A stretch of 22,478 bases of DNA from Fidelibacterota bacterium (lineage in GTDB: Bacteria > Fidelibacterota > Marinisomatia > Marinisomatales > S15-B10), in the NCBI GenBank assembly GCA_002729175.1, contig PBTS01000035.1:5763-28240 (forward strand). The letters run 5' to 3'. The stretch's first letter is position 1. The number at the start of each line of letters is the position of its first letter. Of the stretch, positions 1 through 17,061 are shown one piece after another. The notes beneath the pieces are model-generated. The model did not search any database, was not told where the DNA came from, and worked only from the letters and a program-made list of their open reading frames with translations. Both the position numbers and the translations under genes were made by a program.

Positions 1-1398
1 GTTCTGGTTTTCCAATTCATAAAGGAGAAATGAATGATTCACAACAACAATATCTGCATTCTGCGTCGCATCTCTGAGCGGTCCCAGGAAGCAGCCCCCT
101 TGTTGATTGCAAACACGAGGTGTGCAAAAACCGGGATCACTCTGAATCAAGGATCTTAAGCGATATGACTTCCTCTTTAAAAAACCGGTACACTCCTCAA
201 AGTCGCCTGATTTTGTCCACTGAAGCCAGATGAGAATAACAATCAGTGACTGAACCTCCTGTTCAGAAAGTAGAGTCCGGGCGTCCGCGATTACGCGATC
301 GACCCTGGTGAGGCAAACATAATTATGACGACCTTTCATAAGAGTGGCTGAAAAGGAAACATCCAGCGCCACCGCCAGTTTCGGAATTTCCCTCTGGAAT
401 AGTTGCTCCTGCAGAGGTTTTGTGTGACAGGAAATAATGACAGGTTCTCCTCCTTCAGCTAACGCCGTTCTCAGGGATGACATGAGATAAGCCAGCGATT
501 TTCCCAGACCTGTTCCCGCCTCAATCATACCAACGGCACTTTCATCAAAAATATCCTTCACGAAGTCGGCGTAGTTGATCTGACTCTCTCTCACTTCATA
601 CTCGCCATCGGAGAAGGAACGGGCCAGAAGGCCGTCATCGGCAAAGAATTCATCAGCGGTGGCCGGAAGTGACTCCCTGCTCCCCTCGTGTTGGAAAATA
701 GGTGACGGTAACGCCTTATCAACCTCGCTCTTGATCAAACCTTCTTTCATGTTACCGCTCTTTGCCAGCTCATTGCCCAGGTTGATGTAAAGAGTTTTGT
801 TGTAAAACATTTTCCCTTCAGTGGCCGAAAGAATCTTCTGGATCACTGGTAATGGATATGAGGCCGCTTCCCTGACCAGCTTCAGAAACAACTGTCCAAG
901 TATCTCTGTGTCCGCCAGAGCCCGGTGAGTATCTTCACTAGCTGAACCCAAATATTCGGCAATTGTCCCAAGCTGATGATTGGGCAGAAAAAACAGAAAC
1001 GCTTGAGCAAGAGGCACTGTATCGTACCCTTCGTTCTTAACCTCCTGCGATAGATAATTCAGTTTGAGGTCACTAAGAAATGATAAGTCAAATGGGAGAT
1101 TATGAGCAACGATGGGATAATCTCCAATAAAATTAAATATTTTTTCAACTATCTTATCCTCATTGGGAGCATCCTTAACCATCTCATCGGAAATACCGGT
1201 TTTCCTTACAATTTCCAGCGGAATGAGGCGCTGGGGATTGACCAATGTTTGAAATGAATCCGACGCAACGCCCTCCTCAAAGCGGACGGCGGCAAATTCT
1301 GTGATCTTGTCATCAGCCGGATTAAGACCGGTGGTTTCAAAATCGAATGCGATGAAAGTATGAAGATCTAGTTTACTGAGAAGGTTCGCAAACTCCAT
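1..1398 (-). CDS. dinG: DinG-family ATP-dependent helicase with N-terminal DEDDh 3'-5' exonuclease domain (partial, runs off left edge)
   Basis: Not in the ORF track; translated by hand from ATG at 1398, which overlaps the upstream TAA (TAATG). Open for 466 codons to base 1. Starts MEFANLLSKLDLHTFIAFDFETTG (ExoI), then AHNLPFD (ExoII), HRALAD (ExoIII), RESQ (Q motif), EAGTGLGKS (Walker A), TKPLQEQL, KGRHNYVC and ADIVVVNH. Confidence 0.93.
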   Translation of the reverse strand, partial: MEFANLLSKLDLHTFIAFDFETTGLNPADDKITEFAAVRFEEGVASDSFQTLVNPQRLIPLEIVRKTGISDEMVKDAPNEDKIVEKIFNFIGDYPIVAHNLPFDLSFLSDLKLNYLSQEVKNEGYDTVPLAQAFLFFLPNHQLGTIAEYLGSASEDTHRALADTEILGQLFLKLVREAASYPLPVIQKILSATEGKMFYNKTLYINLGNELAKSGNMKEGLIKSEVDKALPSPIFQHEGSRESLPATADEFFADDGLLARSFSDGEYEVRESQINYADFVKDIFDESAVGMIEAGTGLGKSLAYLMSSLRTALAEGGEPVIISCHTKPLQEQLFQREIPKLAVALDVSFSATLMKGRHNYVCLTRVDRVIADARTLLSEQEVQSLIVILIWLQWTKSGDFEECTGFLKRKSYRLRSLIQSDPGFCTPRVCNQQGGCFLGPLRDATQNADIVVVNHSFLLYELENQN

Positions 1399-2579
1399 TA
1401 AACGCCAGCGAATACCTTCATGACATCAACTAACAGAGAGGGTTTTTTGAAGATAGCTTTGCGGAACATTTTTCCAATGGTACGTTCTTCAGGCGGAATT
1501 TTTTCTACCGCATCGGAAATGCTGTTAAGCTCCTCATCAGTTAGCTTGCTTACAGTTTCTTTAATGGAATAGAAACGTTCGTGGTTCTTACCACCAACCT
1601 TGTTCCACTCTTTGGAATAACGGTTGAGGAATTTTTCCGATGTGTCCTCAGCCTTGATGGCCTCCACCGCGGTTTCTCCCGCCAGCATGCCGCCACGCAT
1701 GCCGGGAATAATACCACCTCCAGTCATTGGATTAACCATATGGGCTGCGTCACCAGCCAGCATAAGTCCATCAGAAACGAATTTCTTTAATGTTTTATCA
1801 CAAGGGACCCCTCCCACTGTTGAACTAACCACCGATCCATTCGGAAATGTCTTTTGAAGAAAGTCATCCAAATAACTTTGAGCTGATCGGAAACGACTAT
1901 ATTTCCCGGAAACGCCAAGGCCTACATTAGCAGCGTTTGATCCCTTGGGAAAAATCCAGAGGTAACCGCCAGGTGCACGCTCGTGTGACATGTAAAAATC
2001 GAACCTGTGCTCATCAATCTCAATTCCGGAAATGGTTTTCTGAGCGGCGGACTCCATATCTTTCATTTTAACAACCGTGTCCAGTCCAGCCCATCGCCCT
2101 ATGCGGCTCTCGACGCCATCAGCACCGATTACCAGGTTGGACTTTACTTCAAACGGCTCTCCCTGGTATTCACCTGTTACACCCACTATTTTACTGTCGT
2201 CAAAAAGCAGTCCATTAACATAAGCCTTGCAAACAATTTGTGCACCGAAGGCTGAAGCATATTGTGCCAGATCATAGTCAAAAATCCTGCGGTCCAGTAT
2301 ATACCCTTTCTGTTTCAAATTCAGATCAATCTTATGATCGTTAGGTGAAATAAGACGTAACTTGGTAATAACAGAGTTAATCCAGCGGGGATCGGGTTTA
2401 ACAAATAATCTCAACCCTTCATCGCTGACGGCCTCACCACATCTCACTGGGACACCAATATCGCGATCTTTCTCCAAAACAAGAACACTTATTCCAGCCT
2501 TGGCGGCATAACGGGCCGCGGTAGTCCCTGCTGGACCGCCTCCCACCACAATTAGATCAAACTTTTTCTGTCTCCACAT
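1398..2579 (-). CDS. Geranylgeranyl reductase family flavoprotein (digeranylgeranylglycerophospholipid reductase-like)
   Basis: FAD-binding GGGPAG; PVRCGEA; LDRRIFD; GADG; GGR signature APGGYLWIFPKG (PxxYxWxFP); AGDAAHMVNPMTGGGI. ATG at 2579 preferred over TTG at 2585 because GAGGT lies 8 nt upstream. Confidence 0.9.
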   Translation of the reverse strand: MWRQKKFDLIVVGGGPAGTTAARYAAKAGISVLVLEKDRDIGVPVRCGEAVSDEGLRLFVKPDPRWINSVITKLRLISPNDHKIDLNLKQKGYILDRRIFDYDLAQYASAFGAQIVCKAYVNGLLFDDSKIVGVTGEYQGEPFEVKSNLVIGADGVESRIGRWAGLDTVVKMKDMESAAQKTISGIEIDEHRFDFYMSHERAPGGYLWIFPKGSNAANVGLGVSGKYSRFRSAQSYLDDFLQKTFPNGSVVSSTVGGVPCDKTLKKFVSDGLMLAGDAAHMVNPMTGGGIIPGMRGGMLAGETAVEAIKAEDTSEKFLNRYSKEWNKVGGKNHERFYSIKETVSKLTDEELNSISDAVEKIPPEERTIGKMFRKAIFKKPSLLVDVMKVFAGV

Positions 2580-2742
2580 TTTCAAATACCTCTATAGGAC
2601 AGATATACATGCACAATTTGCAATCTATGCAGACATTATAAGCAATAGCTATATCTGCTTCTTTAAGTTCAATACAGTCAATAGGACAAACGGCCACACA
2701 GCAACCACAAAAATCGCACCTATTCGGTTTGATTTTAATCAT
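2557..2742 (-). CDS. 2x[4Fe-4S] dicluster ferredoxin
   Basis: Two CxxCxxCxxxCP motifs (CDFCGCCVAVCP, CIDCKLCMYICP) in 61 aa; overlaps both neighbours. Confidence 0.92.
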   Translation of the reverse strand: MIKIKPNRCDFCGCCVAVCPIDCIELKEADIAIAYNVCIDCKLCMYICPIEVFENVETEKV

Positions 2743-3691
2743 AGCTGACTTTCAATGTGGGACTAATAACACCATGGCGAAAGTAATTATATAACCTGAT
2801 TACGTTAAAGTTGAGGAACATAGCAACGCAGAGCCATGGGTATCGAACACTCACAAAAAAAGCCAAAATCATGATGGGATATTTGAATGCCCGGATAATG
2901 TGCTCAGCTCGGGAAACAACCAACGCTACAGCAAAGAATGGAATGGTGATGATGGAGGCCGTACTTATAACGGGATCACCCATCCTGTATCCTAGGAATA
3001 TTGAGACTGTAAGCAATAATCCGCCAAGGCCAACAATCCTTGTAATTTCATTCATAAAATCACGGTGATGAAGTTTTTCAGCCTTCACCGATATTGGCCA
3101 AAGAAGTGTGACTGCAATAAATCCGCACGCATAAGGTGCAGAAGCCAGCATTCCTGAGAGAATTTTCCCTCCTCCCAAGTGCCAGCCAATCATGAAAAGA
3201 GAGAGCGCAGGTAAAACACTTAAAGAAATCCTCATTATCATCTTTTCGTTCTTAAGCTTTTTCCAATGTTTCAGGTATAATCGCCATGATACATAGAAAA
3301 TAGACACCCACGCTCCGACAGAAAAAAGTCTGCTCATTTTCCCCGTTTCTACAGCATCTATTGCTACTGATGAAAGGACAATCAAAAATCCGGCAACTAA
3401 AAGGACAAGTGTTAATTTATTGGTACCGGAGTCTTCTCCTTTTAGGGCTGAGGAACTAGCTACTAATGTTGTTCCTAAAAAGGTCCAAAACAGCGGCCAA
3501 TGAACGGTAGTGGACCAGTAGAATTCATCAATGGTGTCACCCTTATATGCACTGAGACCAGCTGCCATCATAGTCCAAATGGTAATAAAAAGTATCGGGC
3601 GAAACTCAAAAAACCAGTCTAAAGAACGGGAAATATCGTTCAGTCTTACGTAGAGCTTCGTATCAGGTTTAATCCAGCGTGAAATCACCAT
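2735..3691 (-). CDS. Multi-pass membrane protein resembling a degenerate UbiA-family prenyltransferase
   Basis: About 8-9 hydrophobic segments in 318 aa. N-terminal LDWFFEFRPILF..W resembles the UbiA 'RP' start, and the gene sits next to ferredoxin and GGR. The Asp-rich NDxxDxxxD and DxxxD motifs are absent, so the family call is tentative. Confidence 0.55.
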   Translation of the reverse strand: MVISRWIKPDTKLYVRLNDISRSLDWFFEFRPILFITIWTMMAAGLSAYKGDTIDEFYWSTTVHWPLFWTFLGTTLVASSSALKGEDSGTNKLTLVLLVAGFLIVLSSVAIDAVETGKMSRLFSVGAWVSIFYVSWRLYLKHWKKLKNEKMIMRISLSVLPALSLFMIGWHLGGGKILSGMLASAPYACGFIAVTLLWPISVKAEKLHHRDFMNEITRIVGLGGLLLTVSIFLGYRMGDPVISTASIITIPFFAVALVVSRAEHIIRAFKYPIMILAFFVSVRYPWLCVAMFLNFNVIRLYNYFRHGVISPTLKVSYD

Positions 3692-3721
3692 TTCTTACAG
3701 AATAAGTAGCTAAGTGACGAG

Positions 3722-5098
3722 TTATCCAATCAGTGCTACACCGACAATTTTAGAATAAATTTCGTTGAATATAATAAAGGCCACAACTCCGGCTGCAATT
3801 GTCAATAAACCTTTTATCAGACGGGAAGATACATTGGAATCTTCCATCCCACTTGTAAGCTCTTTCATAAAGTTCGGAATACCCCACTGTTTAAGAACAA
3901 ATACAGCCGTAAACATTCCACCAAGCGGAAGCATGTATTTTGAGGATAAATAATCCACAGCATCAAAAAATGATATACCCAGGAATTCTGTGATATTGAT
4001 CCCACCTCCCAGTGAGAAGGAACAGAATATCCCGACGATAGTTATCACGGCACCGAATTGTATCGTGGCTTTTTTCCTGGACCACCCTTTCTGGTCAATA
4101 AAGTATGCTGTCACCACTTCAAGAATTGAAATTGCTGATGTGAGGGCTGCCATGAAAAGTAAGACAAAAAACAATGTTCCCCATAAAGTGCCGGCAGCCA
4201 ATTGTGGAAACACAGATGGCAAAACAACAAAAATCAAACCTGGACCTTCAGCGGGATTTGCTCCAAGAGCAAACACTGTGGTAAAAATGGCTACACCAGC
4301 TAACATAGCAATAGCTGTATCCAAAAAGAGGACCCAAAGGGCTGAATTCAATAAATTTTGTTTTTTATCCAGATAACTGCCATAAGTCATCATGGTGCCC
4401 ATACCGAGGCTAACTGTAAAAAATGAGTGTCCCAATGCCAGAACAATGGAAGAAGCAGTCAGATCCTCAAAACGGGGGTTAAATAAAAAGGAAATCCCTT
4501 TCATACCACCCGGAAGCGTTATCCCACGGATTGCAAGTACAAATAGAAGAACTACAATGAGTGGCATCATAATTGTTGACCATTTTTCAATCCCCCCCTT
4601 TACACCGTTCACAATAACCCAGATACAAAAGCCCATAAATAATACCTGATAAATTATAGGGCTCCAGGTAGATGTAGTAAAAGAGTTGAAAACATTTCCA
4701 GCAACATCAGGATTGCCTGCTAATCCATCAAATCCACCGGTAATGGAAACAACAACATATTTTATTATCCATCCACCGACTACACCATAGAATGAAAGAA
4801 TAACAAAGGCCGAAGCTACACCAAGGTAACCAACGTATTTCCAACTCGAGCCAGGTGCTAACTTCTCAAAAGCACCAACAGGACTCAGTTGTGTTTTACG
4901 CCCTATCACGAATTCGGCAATAACGATCGATAAACCAACAATAAGAATACATGCCAAGTATACGAGAGTAAATGCCGCGCCGCCATTTTGTCCAGCCATA
5001 TGGGGATATTTCCAAATATTACCAATGCCAACTGCCGATCCTGATGCTGCTAAGATAAACCCAATTCTTGATCCCCAGTGTTCGCGTTTTTTGGCCAT
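3722..5098 (-). CDS. Sodium-dependent transporter, neurotransmitter:sodium symporter (NSS/SNF, LeuT-like) family
   Basis: REHWGSRIGFILAASGSAVGIGNIWKYP, GGAAF, FFTVSLGMG..MTYGSY, GPGLIF, AALTSAISILE. Confidence 0.95.
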   Translation of the reverse strand: MAKKREHWGSRIGFILAASGSAVGIGNIWKYPHMAGQNGGAAFTLVYLACILIVGLSIVIAEFVIGRKTQLSPVGAFEKLAPGSSWKYVGYLGVASAFVILSFYGVVGGWIIKYVVVSITGGFDGLAGNPDVAGNVFNSFTTSTWSPIIYQVLFMGFCIWVIVNGVKGGIEKWSTIMMPLIVVLLFVLAIRGITLPGGMKGISFLFNPRFEDLTASSIVLALGHSFFTVSLGMGTMMTYGSYLDKKQNLLNSALWVLFLDTAIAMLAGVAIFTTVFALGANPAEGPGLIFVVLPSVFPQLAAGTLWGTLFFVLLFMAALTSAISILEVVTAYFIDQKGWSRKKATIQFGAVITIVGIFCSFSLGGGINITEFLGISFFDAVDYLSSKYMLPLGGMFTAVFVLKQWGIPNFMKELTSGMEDSNVSSRLIKGLLTIAAGVVAFIIFNEIYSKIVGVALIG

Positions 5099-5115
5099 TA
5101 TTCGGTTCCCTTCAT

Positions 5116-5508
5116 TTAGTTTTGTGTTTTGTCAACCTTTTCATTTTTTTCATCAAAATCGGAAAGGTGACTATCCACAAGTGCATCCGCCAGATTATAT
5201 ATATACACAAATGCGCTGTACCACGCATACTTGTTTCGATTGTTTCGATAATACTCCCTCGGCTTCGTGTAAGAACCGTCATCCCATGAATTGTATGAAG
5301 AACGATTTGTCTGGAACTGATATAGCATCCAGAATTGAGCTCCAAACATTAACGCCGCTTTAATCTTTTTCCCGTTATAAAGTTGGCCGCCTCCAGGGAT
5401 AATTGAATATACTACAGCTTTTCTGGGCGATTTGGGCGCCGTAGCGGTAGAGTCCTGCGCTGAAACAAATGCCGTCATAAGCATAATGAATAAAGCAAGG
5501 CGCTTCAC
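5116..5508 (-). CDS. DUF5683-like exported/membrane protein
   Basis: Signal-peptide-like N-terminus (MKRLALFIMLMTAFVSAQD); SPRKAVVYSIIPGGGQLYN and YNLADALVDSHL patterns typical of this FCB-group family; GTG start overlaps the upstream TAG. Confidence 0.75.
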   Translation of the reverse strand: MKRLALFIMLMTAFVSAQDSTATAPKSPRKAVVYSIIPGGGQLYNGKKIKAALMFGAQFWMLYQFQTNRSSYNSWDDGSYTKPREYYRNNRNKYAWYSAFVYIYNLADALVDSHLSDFDEKNEKVDKTQN

Positions 5509-6398
5509 TAAGGCGGCCCCAGGCCCCCGCCCCAGATTGTGAATCCGCCGGGAATTATTTCAACTTCAAAGACTTTATTTTCGCCTTCGATGATTTCACC
5601 GTCCAGGTGCATGGGTAATGGTTCTTCGCTGGTTACCTTCACTTTCCTGGAGCGAAGGATTGTTACTTCTTCCATATCGTTTATCTTACCGTTCATTAGC
5701 TTAGGAAAGTTCCAAACGATCTTTATAGAACTGATATCAGATACATGACAAATATCGAAGAATCCGTCTTCAAGCTGAGCATCTGGAGCAAGACTGAGCC
5801 CACCGCCAACTGACCAGCCGTTTGCGATACAGGTAAGATAGGAGTGATCATCTATAGTATGGTCATCCAGTGCAATTTTCATCGGAATAGAACTCCATTG
5901 GCGAAGTGTCTTAAAAATAGCAACAACATATACGGAAGTCCCTTTGAGTTTTTTTATCTTACGGCTCTGAATATTTGCAAAGGCGTCGAAGCCAATACCA
6001 ACAACGTTTACGAAATACCTCTCGCCGTTATAAAGACCTAAATCAATTTTTCTCGGTTTTCCATTTATAATATTATCCAAAGAAGCTTCCAATTTCATAG
6101 GGAGATTAGCACTTCGCGCAAAATCATTCCCGGTACCTATAGGAATCACTGCCATGGGGGTGTTGCCGCCAACAAGGCCGTTTAGGACTTCATTCATGGT
6201 ACCATCGCCACCGAAAACTGTAACTAAATTATAATCGTCTCTCATATCTTTAGTGAAAATGGTAGCATCCCCGGGACCTTCTGTCCACCTGACTTCATAA
6301 TCCATCTCTTTTTCTTTGAGCAATTTCTCAAGCCGAGGCAGCTGCTTCAAGGTGGTTCCCCGTCCCGCTTTAGGATTCATGACAAAAAGTATTCTCAC
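5508..6398 (-). CDS. Diacylglycerol/lipid kinase family protein (YegS/DagK/BmrU)
   Basis: NPKAG, GGDGT..EVLNG, IPIGTGNDFAR, GIGFDA, DGE motifs. Confidence 0.93.
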   Translation of the reverse strand: MRILFVMNPKAGRGTTLKQLPRLEKLLKEKEMDYEVRWTEGPGDATIFTKDMRDDYNLVTVFGGDGTMNEVLNGLVGGNTPMAVIPIGTGNDFARSANLPMKLEASLDNIINGKPRKIDLGLYNGERYFVNVVGIGFDAFANIQSRKIKKLKGTSVYVVAIFKTLRQWSSIPMKIALDDHTIDDHSYLTCIANGWSVGGGLSLAPDAQLEDGFFDICHVSDISSIKIVWNFPKLMNGKINDMEEVTILRSRKVKVTSEEPLPMHLDGEIIEGENKVFEVEIIPGGFTIWGGGLGPP

Positions 6399-6787
6399 AA
6401 ACTCTCCTTAACAGCCACGCATTCGATTTCCACATCAACCCCTAAAGGTAGTTTCGAAACTTCTAGTGCGGAACGGGCCGGTGGATCTTTTTCGAAAAAC
6501 TCTAAGAACACTTCATTCAGTTCAGAGAATCGGGAGAGATCCGTCATAAAGACAGTTAGCTTTACAGCATAGGAAAGAGACGACCCAGCCTCAACCAGAA
6601 TTCCGTCAATATTATTTAAAACTTGACGAACGCGGGTCTTGAAATCTCCTTCAATCACCTCTCCTGTGGAAGGATCCAGAGGAATCTGCCCTGCGGTAAA
6701 AATGATGTTGTCCGTTGAAATCCCCTGGCTGTATGTACCAACAGCGCTAGGAGCATTTTCTGTCCTTATTACAGTTCTCTCAGTCAC
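6395..6787 (-). CDS. ridA: RidA/YjgF reactive intermediate/imine deaminase
   Basis: AP..VGTYSQG, AGQIPLDP, catalytic Arg in PPARS, LP..VDVEIEC. Confidence 0.9.
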   Translation of the reverse strand: MTERTVIRTENAPSAVGTYSQGISTDNIIFTAGQIPLDPSTGEVIEGDFKTRVRQVLNNIDGILVEAGSSLSYAVKLTVFMTDLSRFSELNEVFLEFFEKDPPARSALEVSKLPLGVDVEIECVAVKESL

Positions 6788-7217
6788 TGTTCATCTCCTC
6801 TAAGTTCCATATCGCTAAACCAATATCATCATTCATCAGTCTTGCAATCGCACCATCAATGGGATCCATCACAAATTCACCCACAATGGCAACGGTGGCT
6901 TCCATGAGATGGCCGCCATAGACCTGATAATTCACATCAGCAATTGACACGTGAGTGTGGATAAAATGTTCTCCATCTTTCATGGTCACATTCCCAACGC
7001 AGGACAATAGTTCATACGTCTCAGGAAAATTCCGTTCAATATATTGTTTTTCATTAAGATTGTAAAAGGCTACAGTTACATCATTGATACCCCTTATACC
7101 AGAAATTGATGCTGCAGTTAGTTCATGATTATGAGCCACTTCTTTTAATGAAGCAACGACTCTGTCACCTCTCTCAAGAGAAACCACCACTCTTCTCCCA
7201 ATTAATTTTGATTTCAT
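6780..7217 (-). CDS. PPC domain (DUF296/AF0104-like) metal/DNA-binding protein
   Basis: YELLSCVGNV, HxH (HIHTH-like: HFIHTHV) and GGHL motifs. Confidence 0.88.
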   Translation of the reverse strand: MKSKLIGRRVVVSLERGDRVVASLKEVAHNHELTAASISGIRGINDVTVAFYNLNEKQYIERNFPETYELLSCVGNVTMKDGEHFIHTHVSIADVNYQVYGGHLMEATVAIVGEFVMDPIDGAIARLMNDDIGLAIWNLEEMNSD

Positions 7218-9987: not shown

Positions 9988-11016
9988 ATGATCTCAATCG
10001 CTGTAGATGCCATGGGTGGAGACAATGCACCTCGGGAAATCGTTCATGGAGCTGTACTTGCTTCCAAGGCCAATCCTGTCCGAATTTTTCTTGTAGGGGA
10101 TGAATCCACCATAAAAGATGAACTGAAACAGCACGACTACTCTTCTGATAGTCTGGAAATTATTCATACTCCCGATTCCATATCTATGGATGAGTCACCA
10201 AAAGAAGCCGTTGTGAACAAACCAAATGCCTCAGTTCTTGTCGCCGCCTCTCTGGTGTCAAATGGGAAGGCTGATGCCCTTGTTTCCGCCGGAAGTACCG
10301 GATCTGTGGTTCTTTCAGCAGCTAAACATATTTCAAGGATCCCCGGTGTAAAAAGAACAGCTATTGCTACTGTCTACCCTACTCTCAACGAGTTCAAGCG
10401 TGATGACCATCTGGCACTCATGGTAGATATAGGTGCAAATGTGGAATCCTCCGCTAAAGAGTTGGTGCTGTTTGCTATCATGGGTTCTACTTACGTTGCC
10501 AATGTTCGGGGTGTGGGATCGCCTAAATCAGCTCTGTTAAATATAGGTGAAGAGGAAACAAAAGGAAGCGAAAAGATGCAGACCGCTTACCGCATGCTGA
10601 AAGAAGTACCATCCCTAAATTTTTCCGGGAATATTGAAGGGAAGGATATTCTCCGCGGTATGGCGGATGTTATTGTGACAGAAGGATTCGTTGGCAACAT
10701 TGTCATCAAGACACTGGAAGGAACTGCTATGGCAGCTAGTCACCTTGGCAAATTAGCGTTTCGGGCACGGTTTAGCTGGAAACTGGGACTTTTTTTCCTA
10801 CGAAAAGGATTGAGACGTATCCGAGAAGTAACGGATTACGCCGAATATGGTGGCGCACCATTATTGGGATTTGAAAAGATGGTTATTATTGCTCACGGAC
10901 GATCTAGTGCAAAGGCTGTCTCCAATGCCATCAAGCTGGCTGGCAAATCTGTAAGAGATAAAGTGTGCGAGACCATGGCTCAGAAAATTGGCGAACTCGA
11001 TTTTCAGCCGAAATAA
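9988..11016 (+). CDS. plsX: Phosphate:acyl-ACP acyltransferase PlsX
   Basis: IAVDAMGGDNAP, VSAGSTG, DIGAN, LLNIGEEETKG, GNIEG, GFVGN, YGGAPLLG, HGRS. Confidence 0.95.
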   Translation: MISIAVDAMGGDNAPREIVHGAVLASKANPVRIFLVGDESTIKDELKQHDYSSDSLEIIHTPDSISMDESPKEAVVNKPNASVLVAASLVSNGKADALVSAGSTGSVVLSAAKHISRIPGVKRTAIATVYPTLNEFKRDDHLALMVDIGANVESSAKELVLFAIMGSTYVANVRGVGSPKSALLNIGEEETKGSEKMQTAYRMLKEVPSLNFSGNIEGKDILRGMADVIVTEGFVGNIVIKTLEGTAMAASHLGKLAFRARFSWKLGLFFLRKGLRRIREVTDYAEYGGAPLLGFEKMVIIAHGRSSAKAVSNAIKLAGKSVRDKVCETMAQKIGELDFQPK

Positions 11017-13536: not shown

Positions 13537-14778
13537 TTATGAAGGCATCCGGAATACACCAAAACCAAAAAGGTTATCACTATTATCAGATTCACTATAC
13601 TGTTTTGCAACCCTTCTCATCCGTTCTATCGTAATGTCCGCTACCGTTGGAAAGTCTTTTGCCACCTCTTCATCAAGCACGGGCTCATCCAGCTGAGCCA
13701 GAATGAACTGGCGAGTTCCACCGTCTTGGCGGTTTAATTCCCAGACAGCTTGACCGGTACTTCCTGCACCGGCAAAAAAGTCGAGTATCAAAGAATCTTT
13801 ATGACTGCCCATTTTAAGGAGGAGCTTAATGAGAACTACCGGTTTGGGATAATCAAAGACTCTCCTTTTAAATAGCGTTTTAAGCTCACGACTTCCCTTT
13901 TCGTTAGGGCACCCTCTGATGAGTGTTGAATAGGGGTTTGTCCTTACCATTTGCCGGCACTGGTTATCAACTTTTTCGTATTCCTTAAAATAGACAGATG
14001 TTTTTCCATTTCGACTTTTCTTGAAAACAATAAAGTCGTTCTCAATACCCCAGACAACTTTCTTCTCTGACCAGCGCCACGTCCATTTTTTGTCGTCAGG
14101 ATCCCCGCCCGGCCAAACTTCAATTCCATCAGTAGTGTTAATAGGATAATCGAGACTTTCGGAATATCGAATAGACCCACGATCCAGTTTATTCAATCGG
14201 TAGCACCCTCTCTCTTCCACATGCTTATCCTCATGGACAAAACCTTTCAGGGCGCTTGGTTTTCTGTTAAGAATGGTCTTTTTGGAATCTTTAGCATAGA
14301 TCATCACATAGTCATGTTGAACGGCCACATGCCGGGCATCCTGTCTTGGAGCCACACCACTTTGGCGAATCAAAGTGGCGATATAATTCGCTTCACCATA
14401 AATCTCTCCCATCATTTGACGGAGATTATGAATTTCATTATCATCAATAGAAATAAAGATTAATCCCTTTTCAGAAAGCAAATCTCTGGATATCTCCAGC
14501 CTCGGTTCCATGAACTGTCGCCACAGCGAATGAGGATCCATGTTGTTGGTATCTTGCAGGGAGGGAAGCGACCGATATCTATCATGTTTGAAACTGTCAC
14601 GGAAAGTGAAGTCTTTCCCGGTATTGTATGGGGGATCGATATAGATCATATCGATAAGATTTTTATGCCCCTCAAGTAAATGTTGAAGTACAGTCAGATT
14701 ATCACCACAGTATATACAGTTAGAACTGGAGGAGGGATTCACTGAAGCTTCATCATGGAGAACCGGTGTCAGCACCAT
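13537..14778 (-). CDS. Site-specific DNA adenine methyltransferase, Type III Mod-like (beta class), no Res partner in window
   Basis: GDNL, IYIDPPYNTGKDF (motif IV), PRL, IFISIDDNE, FDYPKP, ILDFFAGAGSTG (motif I), RQFILAQLDE, GFGVFR. Confidence 0.92.
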   Translation of the reverse strand: MVLTPVLHDEASVNPSSSSNCIYCGDNLTVLQHLLEGHKNLIDMIYIDPPYNTGKDFTFRDSFKHDRYRSLPSLQDTNNMDPHSLWRQFMEPRLEISRDLLSEKGLIFISIDDNEIHNLRQMMGEIYGEANYIATLIRQSGVAPRQDARHVAVQHDYVMIYAKDSKKTILNRKPSALKGFVHEDKHVEERGCYRLNKLDRGSIRYSESLDYPINTTDGIEVWPGGDPDDKKWTWRWSEKKVVWGIENDFIVFKKSRNGKTSVYFKEYEKVDNQCRQMVRTNPYSTLIRGCPNEKGSRELKTLFKRRVFDYPKPVVLIKLLLKMGSHKDSLILDFFAGAGSTGQAVWELNRQDGGTRQFILAQLDEPVLDEEVAKDFPTVADITIERMRRVAKQYSESDNSDNLFGFGVFRMPS

Positions 14779-14795: not shown

Positions 14796-16013
14796 TCATA
14801 TTTGGCCCGTTATTCTCAGTCGGACAGAATTAAGGGCGGTTTGAGCTGATAGTTCTTTATTGAACCGGCGGTCCCGGTAAAATGTAACAGAACGCGTAAA
14901 TGGCTTCTCACCATCATCAAGTCCGAAGCAGGTGAGCCCCACTGGCTTCTCATCCGTTCCACCGCCAGGGCCAGCTATACCTGTAATAGAAACTCCTATA
15001 TCAGCATCGAAAACTTTTCGGACACCGGCTGCCATCTCCGCCGCCGTCTCCTCACTGACAGCACCATATTTTTTCAAAGTTTCACTTTTAACGCCAACTA
15101 GATTTATCTTCGCTTTATCAGAATAACAGATGACACTTCCAGAAAAATATTCTGAGCTACCGGGCACGTTGGTGATCCTGTCTCCTAGGAGGCCCCCAGT
15201 ACACGACTCCGCCAATGCCAGCATAAGCCCTTTTTCTCTCAGAGATTCTCCTACCGATTGTTCGAGGGTAATCCAGTCTTCAGCATAAATGTATTTTCCA
15301 GCAAGATCATAGATGTTGGATGCTAATTCAGTAACAGCGGACTCATCACCAGCGGTCAGCCGAAGATCTACACCGCTAAAGCCCGGAACAAAAGCAATAT
15401 TCACCGCGGATTCCTCCATGGCTGGTTCCAGAAGATCGTGGAGTTTTGACTCCATAACACCGGTTGTGCGAATGTTGGTAATTATCAGTTCGCTGGATGA
15501 CATCTGTTCCAATTCCGGTAGAACAGTCTCCTCCATCATAGATTTCATCTCCGCTGGTACGCCCGGCAAGATACAGAGCCAGGTCCCGTCCACTGTACAG
15601 GACATTCCTCTGGCTGAACCCTTTGAATTGGGGATAACTGTTCCTCTGTCCGGTACAAGACCCTGATTCAAGTTCGATTTTGGCATATCAACACCACGCC
15701 TAGAGAACCTCTCCCGAAGCAGTTCCAGATAGTCTTCGTCCATTTCCAAAGTAGCACCGGTAAATTCACAATAGGCGTCCAGTGTAACATCATCCCTGGT
15801 GGGTCCTAGTCCCCCCGTGCAGATGACTATATCCGCTTTATTGGCCACCAGTGCCATCGCTTCCACGATCTCACCCTTGATATCCCCCACCGATGTTTTC
15901 CAGATAGTCCTGATTCCGATATCCATAAGTTTTCGTCCTATCCACGCGCCATTTGAATCAAGGGTGTAACCGCCCAACAGCTCATCACCAATTGTAAGAA
16001 TGGCACTCTTCAT
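14796..16013 (-). CDS. cinA: Competence/damage-inducible protein CinA (MoCF-like domain + NMN deamidase PncC domain)
   Basis: IGDELL, TGGLGPT.DDVT, LPGVPAEM, AESCTGG, GAVSEETA, SITGIAGPGGG..KPVG. Confidence 0.97.
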   Translation of the reverse strand: MKSAILTIGDELLGGYTLDSNGAWIGRKLMDIGIRTIWKTSVGDIKGEIVEAMALVANKADIVICTGGLGPTRDDVTLDAYCEFTGATLEMDEDYLELLRERFSRRGVDMPKSNLNQGLVPDRGTVIPNSKGSARGMSCTVDGTWLCILPGVPAEMKSMMEETVLPELEQMSSSELIITNIRTTGVMESKLHDLLEPAMEESAVNIAFVPGFSGVDLRLTAGDESAVTELASNIYDLAGKYIYAEDWITLEQSVGESLREKGLMLALAESCTGGLLGDRITNVPGSSEYFSGSVICYSDKAKINLVGVKSETLKKYGAVSEETAAEMAAGVRKVFDADIGVSITGIAGPGGGTDEKPVGLTCFGLDDGEKPFTRSVTFYRDRRFNKELSAQTALNSVRLRITGQI

Positions 16014-16468
16014 AGGAAAAGGGCCGCCGCCTGCGTTATAACACCAGCATAGAGCCCCGCCACCACATCATCCATCATTATTCCCCAGCCGCCGGGGAGG
16101 CGTTCGAAACGATTCGCAGGATACACTTTTATAATATCAAATATTCGAAACAGAATAAATGCAATCCCGAGCCACAACCATTCGTTCGGGATCATGAGTA
16201 GGGCAATCCACATGCCTACCCATTCATCGATGACGACCTCGGAAGGATCGCTGTTACTCTCTTCATCAGAAACAATGGAAGAAACAATAACACCAACAAG
16301 AAAGATCACAATCACAATCAATGAAAGTCTGAATAGTTCCATCTCCGGTAATAGACGCCAGGCAATCAATGCGGCGGCGCTTCCCCAAGTGCCTGGAGCT
16401 AAAGGGAGATATCCAATTCGGAAGCAGGTTGCGAGCCAGTTAGCAGAATGGACGAGAGCCGTCCTCAC
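16010..16468 (-). CDS. pgpA: Phosphatidylglycerophosphatase A
   Basis: APGTWGS, DPSEVVIDEWVG, FRIFDIIK, GGWGIMMDDVVAG. Confidence 0.96.
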   Translation of the reverse strand: MRTALVHSANWLATCFRIGYLPLAPGTWGSAAALIAWRLLPEMELFRLSLIVIVIFLVGVIVSSIVSDEESNSDPSEVVIDEWVGMWIALLMIPNEWLWLGIAFILFRIFDIIKVYPANRFERLPGGWGIMMDDVVAGLYAGVITQAAALFL

Positions 16469-17061
16469 GCATCGTCGCTGGAATTGTCCACAAAGGCTGC
16501 AATGGCGGCGCGGTTAACATACAAATAATGCAGTCCCGTATAGACTGAAAATATGGTCGCTGAAAAAACAGTGACCCATATAAGATTGAAAGTGTCGATA
16601 AATATGATAATCTGAGAAGCATCAACAAAGGATAGAGTTTTCAAAGCCAGATAGCTAAGCACAAAAATAATAGCCGCTAGCTGAACGCCTGTTTTTGCTT
16701 TCGCAATCTTGCTGGTGACAAGGCTGATACCATTGTTAAGAAACAGCATTCGCAGTCCAGTCACAAACAGATCCCTGAACACAATGAGCCCCACCATCCA
16801 GTATGGAATCTTGTGAAGGAAAGCAAACGACAGGAAAGCTGAAATTACTAAAATCTTGTCAGCAAGTGGATCCAGGAATTCACCAGTCTTGGTCACAAGT
16901 TCACGTTTCCGAGCGATATGACCATCAAAGGCGTCCGTTATGGAGGCGATAATAAAGATCCCCAGTGCGCACACCTTCGACCACGGCGCCTCATAAAAAA
17001 GACAAAGGATGAAAAGCGGCGTAAGGACAATACGACCAATAGTAAGAATATTGGGTAGCAT
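16465..17061 (-). CDS. pgsA: CDP-diacylglycerol--glycerol-3-phosphate 3-phosphatidyltransferase
   Basis: PNILTIGRI; CDP-alcohol phosphotransferase motif DAFDGHIAR...G.FLDPLADK; KAKT..Q. Confidence 0.95.
   Translation of the reverse strand: MLPNILTIGRIVLTPLFILCLFYEAPWSKVCALGIFIIASITDAFDGHIARKRELVTKTGEFLDPLADKILVISAFLSFAFLHKIPYWMVGLIVFRDLFVTGLRMLFLNNGISLVTSKIAKAKTGVQLAAIIFVLSYLALKTLSFVDASQIIIFIDTFNLIWVTVFSATIFSVYTGLHYLYVNRAAIAAFVDNSSDDA

Follow-up and report, generated by a model that had tools for sequence, protein, structure and literature searches.

Can a bacterium with a full set of ester-lipid genes also saturate the isoprenoid chains of archaeal-type lipids, and what is the role of a membrane protein of prenyltransferase descent that is encoded directly before the saturating enzyme? 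These questions are raised by three overlapping minus-strand genes in a stretch of 22,478 nucleotides from a Fidelibacterota bacterium, a member of Candidatus Marinimicrobia (alternative names SAR406 and Marinisomatota). This whole stretch (G000:C55:5763-28240) is called the window here. Its source genome has a size of 1.83 Mb in 87 contigs and is 93% complete and 7% contaminated. The three genes are:

1398..2579, minus strand: flavoprotein of the geranylgeranyl reductase (GGR) family, in the ferredoxin-linked form that we call type A, 393 aa, with the ATG at 2579.
2557..2742, minus strand: dicluster 2x[4Fe-4S] ferredoxin, 61 aa, with Fer4 and Fer4_7 matches.
2735..3691, minus strand: polytopic membrane protein, a UbiA-superfamily paralogue by fold and intermediate homologues, 318 aa, called the UbiA relic below.

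The reading frame of the reductase extends to a TTG at 2585 (1398..2585, 395 aa), and 393 aa is the length of nearly all homologues. Its ATG start overlaps the stop of the ferredoxin gene by 23 nt, and the ferredoxin start overlaps the stop of the membrane-protein gene by 8 nt; these coordinates bear out the three overlapping genes of a first-pass annotation that had been made from the letters alone. The comparison with relatives proposed there was carried out and the trio was found in all five related genome loci, so this arrangement is not due to chance. Our best explanation, to which we give about even chances, is a composite one: ferredoxin and reductase would form a saturase for isoprenoid ether lipids, and the UbiA relic, inherited from an ancestral three-gene unit, would be either non-catalytic or of changed chemistry.

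The reductase is almost certainly a GGR-family enzyme. It scores above the cut-offs of both family models, namely TIGR02032 (225.8 bits, cut-off 158.8) and PF22578 GGR_cat (86.9 bits, cut-off 27). Intact motifs are VVGGGPAG for FAD binding, VRCGEAVS as the context of the catalytic Cys, PGGYLWIFP, which confirms the PxxYxWxFP motif seen at the first reading, and GDAAHMVNPMTGGGI. VRCGEAVS aligns with the CGE/CGD of the solved structures 3OZ2 and 4OPU, and PGGYLWIFP aligns with 3OZ2. The columns of the FAD glycines, the Cys context, PGGYLWIFP and GDAAHMVNPMTGGGI are invariant in 27 of 27 orthologues. The motif names (GxGxxG, catalytic Cys, PxxYxWxFP) are those current in the GGR literature, PMC10821996 included. 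The gene has a ratio of non-synonymous to synonymous divergence (dN/dS) of 0.056-0.074 (0.056 against the related locus L014), and it is the only GGR-family gene above the cut-off in the source genome.

Among the specific models the highest scores were obtained with archaeal digeranylgeranylglycerophospholipid (DGGGPL) reductases, namely the Thermoplasmatales model NF041160 (258.8 bits, cut-off 780) and the general archaeal model NF041080 (186.6 bits, cut-off 580). Also below their cut-offs stayed the models for BchP/ChlP (TIGR02023, 136.7 bits, cut-off 343.3), haloarchaeal DGGGPL reductase (NF041385, 99.7 bits, cut-off 700), FixC (56.6 bits, cut-off 610) and MenJ (NF045655, 55.5 bits, cut-off 700). 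The PDB search gave the same picture, with the Thermoplasma DGGGPL reductase 3OZ2 at 236 bits (E 6e-69, residues 8-363), Sulfolobus GGR at 96 bits and FixC at 45 bits. A quick maximum-likelihood tree of 31 rows was reconstructed from 22 ferredoxin-linked GGRs, two divergent paralogues, two BchP, two haloarchaeal DGGGPL reductases, one haloarchaeal GGR-family protein, E. coli FixC and one Streptomyces GGR-family protein. In it the ferredoxin-linked GGRs form one compact group, and BchP, the haloarchaeal DGGGPL reductases, FixC, the Streptomyces protein and the divergent paralogues stand outside on long branches. By models, structures and tree the enzyme is closer to archaeal DGGGPL reductase than to MenJ, FixC or BchP. 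The phylogenetic comparison suggested by the first-pass annotation is thus covered in part, for FixC and BchP, both of which fall outside. A grouping with MenJ or FixC, named at that time as the outcome that would speak against an archaeal-type reductase, was seen neither in the family models nor in the PDB search nor in the tree (the latter without MenJ).

Three other assignments were considered and rejected. A FixC or ETF-quinone oxidoreductase type is contradicted by its model and PDB scores, by the position of FixC outside type A in the tree and by the absence of electron-transfer-flavoprotein (fixAB) genes among the open reading frames (ORFs) of the window. An identity as BchP/ChlP fails on the model score, and the two BchP references occupy a long branch outside type A. 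Against MenJ speak the score of 55.5 versus 700, the lack of a PF02621 match and a best MenB score of 99.9 bits at a cut-off of 342.7.

Two side observations concern the history of this gene. Between window positions 1398-2742 and L014:5229-6573 the synonymous divergence is 1.29 for the GGR gene and 0.58 for the ferredoxin gene, compared with 0.05-0.24 for six flanking genes, which looks as if recombination with a more distant lineage had replaced the GGR allele. One GGR on a 4-kb contig (P0160) shares 71% identity with that of the window and bears the NCBI label Candidatus Poseidoniia archaeon; either the contig is from Marinimicrobia and was misbinned, or the gene was transferred recently between two abundant groups of the sea.

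The small protein encoded next to the reductase is a dicluster ferredoxin, as had been read from its sequence. It matches Fer4 (32.9 bits, cut-off 21.1) and Fer4_7 (29.2 bits, cut-off 27) and shows two CxxCxxCxxxCP motifs (C9, C12, C15, C19 and C38, C41, C44, C48, with a Pro after each set). None of the eight Cys varies in 21 of 21 orthologues, which represent very different lineages, and dN/dS against L014 is 0.14. Ferredoxin and GGR look like a dedicated pair for prenyl-chain saturation, and it is likely that the reductase takes its electrons from the neighbouring ferredoxin. Four genes for alpha-type (POR_N) subunits of 2-oxoacid:ferredoxin oxidoreductases are present in the source genome and their products could reduce the ferredoxin; no Rnf or Nqr was found there. 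A complex prediction for GGR and ferredoxin with the membrane protein as partner gave a score of 0.00 in two runs made without controls, a result that counts neither way for an interaction. Contigs from RNA libraries (metatranscriptomes of four studies) cover all of positions 1-6500 at 95-100% likeness. One of them (2543-2903) crosses both junctions, GGR-ferredoxin as well as ferredoxin-relic, and others span 763-2600 and 2600-3955. These contigs show presence alone, neither strand nor transcript ends, and their depth cannot rank genes.

The rest of the pathway was sought elsewhere in the source genome. Here the first-pass annotation had proposed to look for the synthase of geranylgeranylglyceryl phosphate (GGGP), for an intact synthase of digeranylgeranylglyceryl phosphate (DGGGP), for sn-glycerol-1-phosphate (G1P) dehydrogenase and for CarS. 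The following genes were found, those for GGGP synthase (GGGPS) and for the protein resembling DGGGP synthase (DGGGPS) on separate contigs:

Contig C58: GGGP synthase; PF01884 119.5 bits, TIGR01769 185.9 bits (cut-off 161.55).
Contig C36: DGGGPS-like UbiA protein; NF009523 187.8 bits and NF009521 180.5 bits (cut-offs 269 and 296), NDYRDLETD and DADGD intact.
Source genome: three polyprenyl synthases.
Contig C83, L004:1000-2340: MenA-like UbiA protein with an N-terminal PAS domain, 446 aa.
Contig C42, L002:1432-3360: heme o synthase fusion, 642-aa ORF, with heme o synthase at residues 357-638.

A GGGP synthase above the TIGR01769 cut-off is thus encoded, and so is a DGGGPS-like UbiA protein with both motifs, which stays below the DGGGPS cut-offs. 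Two of the listed proteins deserve a remark of their own. The joining of a PAS domain to a MenA-like protein is an unusual fusion, and the menaquinone ring pathway was not found in this genome. The N-terminal part of the 642-aa ORF has a faint heme A synthase match, so it is possibly a CtaA-CtaB fusion.

The distribution of these genes was followed in an order sample of 61 genomes, including that of the window, and in a phylum sample of 121 genomes. Within the order, GGGPS was matched in 53 genomes, the DGGGPS-like gene in 52, a GGR of any type in 49 and the family of the UbiA relic in 57. The 49 GGR-positive genomes comprise 40 with the ferredoxin-linked type A and nine with only a divergent paralogue called type B. 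GGGPS is present in all 49 of them and the DGGGPS-like gene in 48, the exception being a genome that is 81% complete. Conversely, the eight genomes without GGGPS (96-99% complete; five from genus g5, two from g7 and one from g11) all lack the DGGGPS-like gene and the GGR as well, and at least three separate joint losses of the three genes are suggested. In the phylum sample 100 genomes have the type A GGR, 91 have GGGPS and 56 have a member of the relic family. The nearness of the GGR to archaeal DGGGPL reductase, the presence of GGGPS and a DGGGPS-like gene in the genome and their joint absence in the order support the ferredoxin-driven saturation of prenyl chains that the first reading had proposed. 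The type B paralogue (L104:4572-5816 in G067, L105:4988-6304 in G047; also in G153, G160 and seven others) reaches 137-183 bits on the type A profile, matches PF22578 weakly and has no ferredoxin gene.

The third gene of the trio poses the more difficult question. Its product has no Pfam match even at E up to 1 (PF01040 included), no NCBIfam match and none to the DGGGP synthase models NF009521, NF009522 and NF009523. A word-index search returned 30 relatives with 38-99% identity, all unannotated and one named from Marinimicrobia, and phmmer against 1.84 billion representatives returned 100 relatives with E up to 0.001. An AlphaFold (AF2) model based on a 20-row alignment reached a mean predicted local confidence (pLDDT) of 78 and a predicted template-modelling score (pTM) of 0.82. 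The top matches of this model in Foldseek were 4tq3, 7bpu, 6m31 and 4od4 (E about 0.01-0.2, template-modelling scores 0.47-0.56). VIA-align gave Z 16.3 for 4od4, 14.7 for 4tq3 and 14.5 for the DGGGP synthase 6m31 over 224-234 residues, followed by soluble trans-prenyltransferases with Z 12-14; as a Z near 14 can arise by chance in helical bundles, the fold match has to be read together with the chain of intermediate sequences. In that chain 16 of 70 aligned family members match PF01040 (best 3.8e-26) and the profile of the 70 members matches chlorophyll synthase with E 4e-6; therefore the protein belongs to the UbiA superfamily by descent. The earlier label "UbiA-like" holds in the sense of remote homology through fold and intermediate sequences, but not in that of any Pfam or NCBIfam match of its own. 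A look-up in the ESM Atlas gave 0.78-0.79 at best, below a level also reached by shuffled proteins, and was dropped as it yields no lead.

UbiA enzymes bind the Mg-diphosphate of the prenyl donor with both of their Asp-rich motifs, and distant members of the present family still show the corresponding signatures NQxxDxxxDxxNxK and PDxxGDxxxxKxT(F). In the window protein the first is replaced by SSALKGEDSGTNK, after which about 17 residues are gone, and at the position of the second stands VKAEKLHHRDF. Within its own clade the region of motif 1 (F71-G101) contains no invariant residue, and at the site of motif 2 only E205 and R210-D211 are nearly invariant. The loss of both diphosphate-binding motifs makes a classical prenyl transfer very unlikely, and judging from these residues the relic can probably no longer transfer prenyl groups. 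The role of DGGGP synthase that had been thought of for this gene of the module has to be abandoned: motif 1 is lost, a single conserved Glu is left at motif 2, no model matches and the protein descends from an orphan subfamily of UbiA. It is nevertheless not free to vary. Of 43 invariant residues 27 lie among the last 84 (235-318), in a family-specific pattern (DPVxST, PF, RAEHxxRAxRYP, RYPW, YNYFR, PTLKV) which is common to the motif-bearing relatives. Its dN/dS is 0.27 against L014 (range 0.27-0.47), compared with 0.10 for the transporter and 0.30 for the lipid kinase of the same pair of loci, and against L016 the proportion of non-synonymous differences (pN) is 0.32 when that of synonymous ones (pS) is saturated at 0.75. 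These values indicate that the gene is maintained by purifying selection.

The motif-bearing relatives reveal where the relic comes from. Metagenomes were scanned with a 12-row alignment of such members, and the best 80 of 133 confirmed relatives' loci were kept. Of the 57 loci whose sequence extends at least 400 nt downstream, 52 have a ferredoxin gene there on the same strand, 49 of them within 300 nt. Where at least 1700 nt were available, the GGR gene came next in 44 of 49 loci, and in 33 all three genes are tightly packed. The other 16 loci comprise five without ferredoxin or GGR downstream (L019, L027, L040, L067, L070) and 11 in which the genes are spaced apart; in the two of the latter that were annotated (L024, L046), restriction-modification genes are among the additional ones. 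The source names of the unit-bearing contigs mention Bacteroidota and Marinimicrobia. An orphan UbiA-ferredoxin-GGR unit is thus conserved across many metagenome contigs of FCB-group (Fibrobacteres-Chlorobi-Bacteroidetes) type. The motif-bearing UbiA proteins obtain best NCBIfam scores of only 36-72 bits over the models for homogentisate phytyltransferase, chlorophyll synthase, DGGGPS and MenA (cut-offs 205-313), and 22-72 bits on the DGGGPS models (cut-offs 269-353); by these scores they constitute an orphan subfamily. In two annotated loci (L020, L081) the gene after GGR encodes a CDP-alcohol phosphatidyltransferase. In motif-bearing loci purF separates the UbiA gene from the transporter gene; it was rejected as a member of the unit, being a housekeeping gene that the window does not have at this position.

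Two peculiarities of single loci may be added. In L024:6231-8852 and L046:6017-8082 a NotI-like enzyme with a D12 methylase and an MjaI-like enzyme with an N4/N6 methylase, respectively, are inserted inside the unit, which survives being split by restriction-modification genes. In genome UBA1134 a masked stretch of X (L017:5200-5310) lies between ferredoxin and GGR and makes this junction unreadable.

The order of genes is transporter gene, X, ferredoxin, GGR and dinG, and the slot X shows a graded series, with graded decay also inside the order to which the window belongs:

Both motifs intact: G099, G101, G018.
Motif 1 decayed, motif 2 intact: G153, G160, G121.
Both motifs gone, full length: window, G143, G115, G122, G135, G145.
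About 265 aa, stretch after motif 1 gone: G063 and others.
No gene: families f14, f16, f18.

A UbiA-family gene and a GGR gene are both present in 47 phylum genomes, in 46 of them on the same contig and less than 1 kb apart. In the last class of the series (L098-L102) the UbiA gene is absent and ferredoxin and GGR are still together, with purF or other genes directly before them. In G047 and G067 the divergent GGR paralogue, without a ferredoxin, directly follows the short form of the relic, at the place otherwise taken by ferredoxin and GGR. The adjacent SNF transporter was considered as the partner of the relic, which it adjoins even in the absence of ferredoxin and GGR, but this is explained equally well by inherited gene order.

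The data show to which families the proteins belong, the state of their motifs, the linkage of the genes, their co-occurrence among genomes and the selection on them. From this we infer how electrons leave the ferredoxin, which lipid is reduced and what the relic does at present. Low-potential electrons would reach the FAD of the GGR from the small 2x[4Fe-4S] ferredoxin, as in the pair of Methanosarcina acetivorans, and the GGR would hydrogenate the double bonds of geranylgeranyl chains. Its substrates would most likely be isoprenoid glycerol ether lipids made by the GGGPS and the DGGGPS-like UbiA protein encoded elsewhere in the genome and completed by bacterial head-group enzymes; that ether lipids are indeed the substrate is a proposition with roughly equal chances on either side. 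The membrane protein descends from the orphan UbiA subfamily found upstream of ferredoxin and GGR in many FCB-type bacteria and has lost its Asp-rich motifs within the lineage; kept by purifying selection, it would now be a protein of no catalytic activity or of a different one.

Several observations weigh against this explanation. The GGR remains below every equivalogue cut-off (best 258.8 versus 780), so that its substrate cannot be assigned by homology. The key split of the tree has a value of just 83 in the Shimodaira-Hasegawa-like approximate likelihood ratio test (SH-aLRT), in a tree that contains no Thermoplasma, Methanosarcina or MenJ references, and one row, the GGR-family protein of the haloarchaeon Natronorubrum, stands within the type A polytomy with a branch length of 5.67, which was treated as long-branch noise. 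G1P dehydrogenase (PF13685) and CarS (PF01864), both of which the first-pass annotation had named as genes to look for, have no match in the 93% complete source genome. No GGR is present in three g11 genomes and G131, all of which possess GGGPS and the DGGGPS-like gene. Conversely, 17 of the 100 GGR-positive phylum genomes lack a GGGPS match in a search with one query, 14 of them in genus g25 (one unlisted genome was placed there from the genus tallies). The co-occurrence counts overstate the case because related genomes are not independent, and they represent a pattern and not a test. Ferredoxin and GGR are cleanly missing between relic and dinG in G153, G160, G139, G059 and G095, the first two of which belong to the window's own family, and the relic is matched in six of the eight genomes without GGGPS, DGGGPS-like gene and GGR (three clearly, three weakly). 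As the relic persists where ferredoxin and GGR are gone, selection on it cannot rest on the reductase alone. Finally, the cover by RNA-library contigs is even over all 6.5 kb, and so a carry-over of DNA is possible.

A different idea is that ferredoxin and GGR saturate another polyprenyl compound, such as a quinone side chain (in the manner of MenJ), a polyprenol or polyprenyl phosphate carrier, or free geranylgeranyl diphosphate (GGPP). GGRs are promiscuous toward DGGGP, GGPP, farnesyl diphosphate and prenols (PMC10821996), 14 of the 15 genomes of g25 carry ferredoxin and GGR without a GGGPS match, the genome of the window encodes a MenA-like UbiA protein and a heme o synthase, and the ancestral partner was an orphan UbiA protein without an assigned acceptor. 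On the other side, no futalosine enzymes (PF02621), no true MenB (the best candidate being the one mentioned above) and only a weak UbiE-like match (32.6 bits) were found in this genome, and the GGR itself is far from the MenJ model. Within the order, moreover, the GGR never occurs without GGGPS (49 of 49) and is absent in all eight GGGPS-less genomes. We therefore regard a different polyprenyl substrate as rather doubtful.

For the membrane protein two other roles have to be compared with that of a relic under selection for a non-catalytic or altered function. It could be a membrane dock or substrate-presenting subunit that holds an isoprenoid lipid in the old prenyl cavity for GGR and ferredoxin. 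Its gene overlaps that of the ferredoxin by 8 nt and would thus be translationally coupled, it adjoins the pair in 46 of the 47 phylum genomes with both, its UbiA fold is retained according to the structural model, and it is under purifying selection. Against this role, the protein persists without ferredoxin and GGR in the five genomes named above, is kept in six of eight genomes without the whole pathway, and is missing beside the pair in f14, f16 and f18; since the whole neighbourhood is syntenic, its adjacency may also be inherited gene order. A docking role thus appears unlikely. Still less can be said for a functionless remnant in slow decay, next to which ferredoxin and GGR alone would matter. 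The graded loss among lineages, first of motif 1, then of motif 2, then of about 50 residues and at last of the gene, would fit such a decay, and so would the faster divergence of the membrane protein (36-53% identity where GGR has 72-82%) and its dN/dS, which exceeds that of the GGR. But no genome examined has an interrupted frame, 57 of 61 order genomes have a member of the family, pN stays at 0.32 against L016 where pS is saturated, and the concentration of 27 of 43 invariant residues in the last 84 is not the pattern of neutral decay, all of which makes this quite improbable. We thus prefer a ferredoxin-driven saturase accompanied by a UbiA relic that is still selected for a non-catalytic or altered function.

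The best comparison for the pair is the archaeal one of M. acetivorans, whose reductase is MA1484 and whose ferredoxin is MA1485. In this archaeon the GGR depends on the ferredoxin of the neighbouring gene (PMC10821996; reference list of PMC7852524); the work is listed as Isobe et al. 2014 in the references of PMC7852524 and cited as Ogawa et al. 2014 in PMC10821996. In both cases the gene of a GGR-family flavoprotein directly adjoins that of a small ferredoxin, which in the archaeon is the required in vivo reductant for DGGGP-type lipids. In contrast, the present host is a bacterium and a UbiA-family gene precedes the pair; the likeness is one of gene arrangement. The best solved relative, 3OZ2 from Thermoplasma acidophilum, shares the catalytic Cys context, YxWxFP and GDAAxxxxPxTGGGI with the GGR of the window, but the equivalogue cut-off of its model is missed and its electron donor differs (PMC10821996). 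The relic has the same fold as ApUbiA (4OD4), AfUbiA (4TQ3) and M. jannaschii DGGGPS (6M31); unlike these prenyltransferases it is devoid of motif 1, retains one conserved Glu of motif 2 and ends in an additional helix and tail, which are conserved.

That FCB bacteria carry archaeal-type lipid genes, that Marinimicrobia appear in a survey of such genes and that an archaeal GGR depends on ferredoxin is already published. Orthologues of GGGPS and DGGGPS were reported from all 12 FCB phyla surveyed, Marinimicrobia included, and G1P dehydrogenase within FCB only from Fibrobacteres and Cloacimonetes (Coleman et al. 2019, PMC6431249). The two synthases of Cloacimonetes are active (Villanueva et al. 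2021, PMC7852524), and metagenome-assembled genomes (MAGs) of Cloacimonetes contain GGRs related to euryarchaeal ones and no CarS (PMC7852524). For the single member of the phylum in culture, the lipids reported are fatty-acid methyl esters only (PMC11652737). The present genome resembles the FCB gene set in combining GGGPS, a DGGGPS-like UbiA protein and a GGR with a complete set of bacterial ester-lipid genes, and in lacking, as published, G1P dehydrogenase (most FCB phyla) and CarS (Cloacimonetes MAGs). It differs in that GGGPS and the DGGGPS-like gene are not co-localised (C58, C36). It differs also in the ferredoxin partner, the upstream orphan UbiA protein and its motif-less derivative, none of which is described in the accessible text of PMC7852524, PMC6431249 or PMC10821996, supplements aside; a literature search for Marinimicrobia together with "geranylgeranyl reductase" found no paper. 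The gene set described here extends, without proving it, the published idea that Marinimicrobia make archaeal-like lipids.

The trio is surrounded by housekeeping genes and by genes of bacterial lipid synthesis. Family matches and coordinates confirm the bacterial lipid genes that had been recognized at the outset as plsX, pgsA, pgpA and a gene of the diacylglycerol-kinase family:

5508..6398: YegS-type lipid kinase, a bacterial lipid gene.
9988..11016: plsX, a bacterial ester-lipid gene.
16010..16468: pgpA, a bacterial ester-lipid gene.
16465..17061: CDP-alcohol phosphatidyltransferase, a bacterial ester-lipid gene.

The further suggestion of the first-pass annotation that archaeal-type and bacterial lipid genes together may indicate a mixed membrane is unsupported as it was written. 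Other neighbours encode a dinG-type exonuclease-helicase, an SNF-family sodium symporter and a DUF5683 protein, and ridA, alaS and recA are also present in the window. A lone gene for an N6/N4 DNA methylase (13537-14778, minus strand) is situated between a gene for a LigT-like phosphoesterase and cinA in otherwise housekeeping surroundings. The order ridA, (yegS), DUF5683, SNF transporter, ..., ferredoxin, GGR and dinG (window 3722-7217, loci L020-L108) persists across very distant FCB-type contigs, in which the GGR is just 43-54% identical; such a long-lived order is unusual for functionally unrelated genes.

In the dark ocean SAR406/Marinimicrobia rank with the most common bacteria. A central place in the debate on the "lipid divide" belongs to the archaeal-type lipid genes of FCB bacteria, and the saturation step has hardly been examined in bacteria. 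A tentative and rather speculative reading of our data is that Marinimicrobia make saturated archaeol-like ether lipids beside their ester lipids by means of GGGPS, a DGGGPS-like enzyme and ferredoxin-GGR, that a part of the marine "archaeal" diether signal is bacterial, and that the UbiA-fold protein is a pseudoenzyme with a new role in the membrane that outlives the pathway. If ferredoxin and GGR indeed follow GGGPS and the DGGGPS-like gene within one order, this would define a set of three to four genes which could be rebuilt in E. coli and looked for in lipidomes from the ocean. Phytanyl ethers in abundant deep-sea bacteria, if they are made, would mean that archaeol-type biomarkers have to be assigned to their sources with care. 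The UbiA relic would then represent a natural series in which an intramembrane enzyme sheds its catalytic motifs stepwise under selection, and this may be useful for the understanding of membrane pseudoenzymes.

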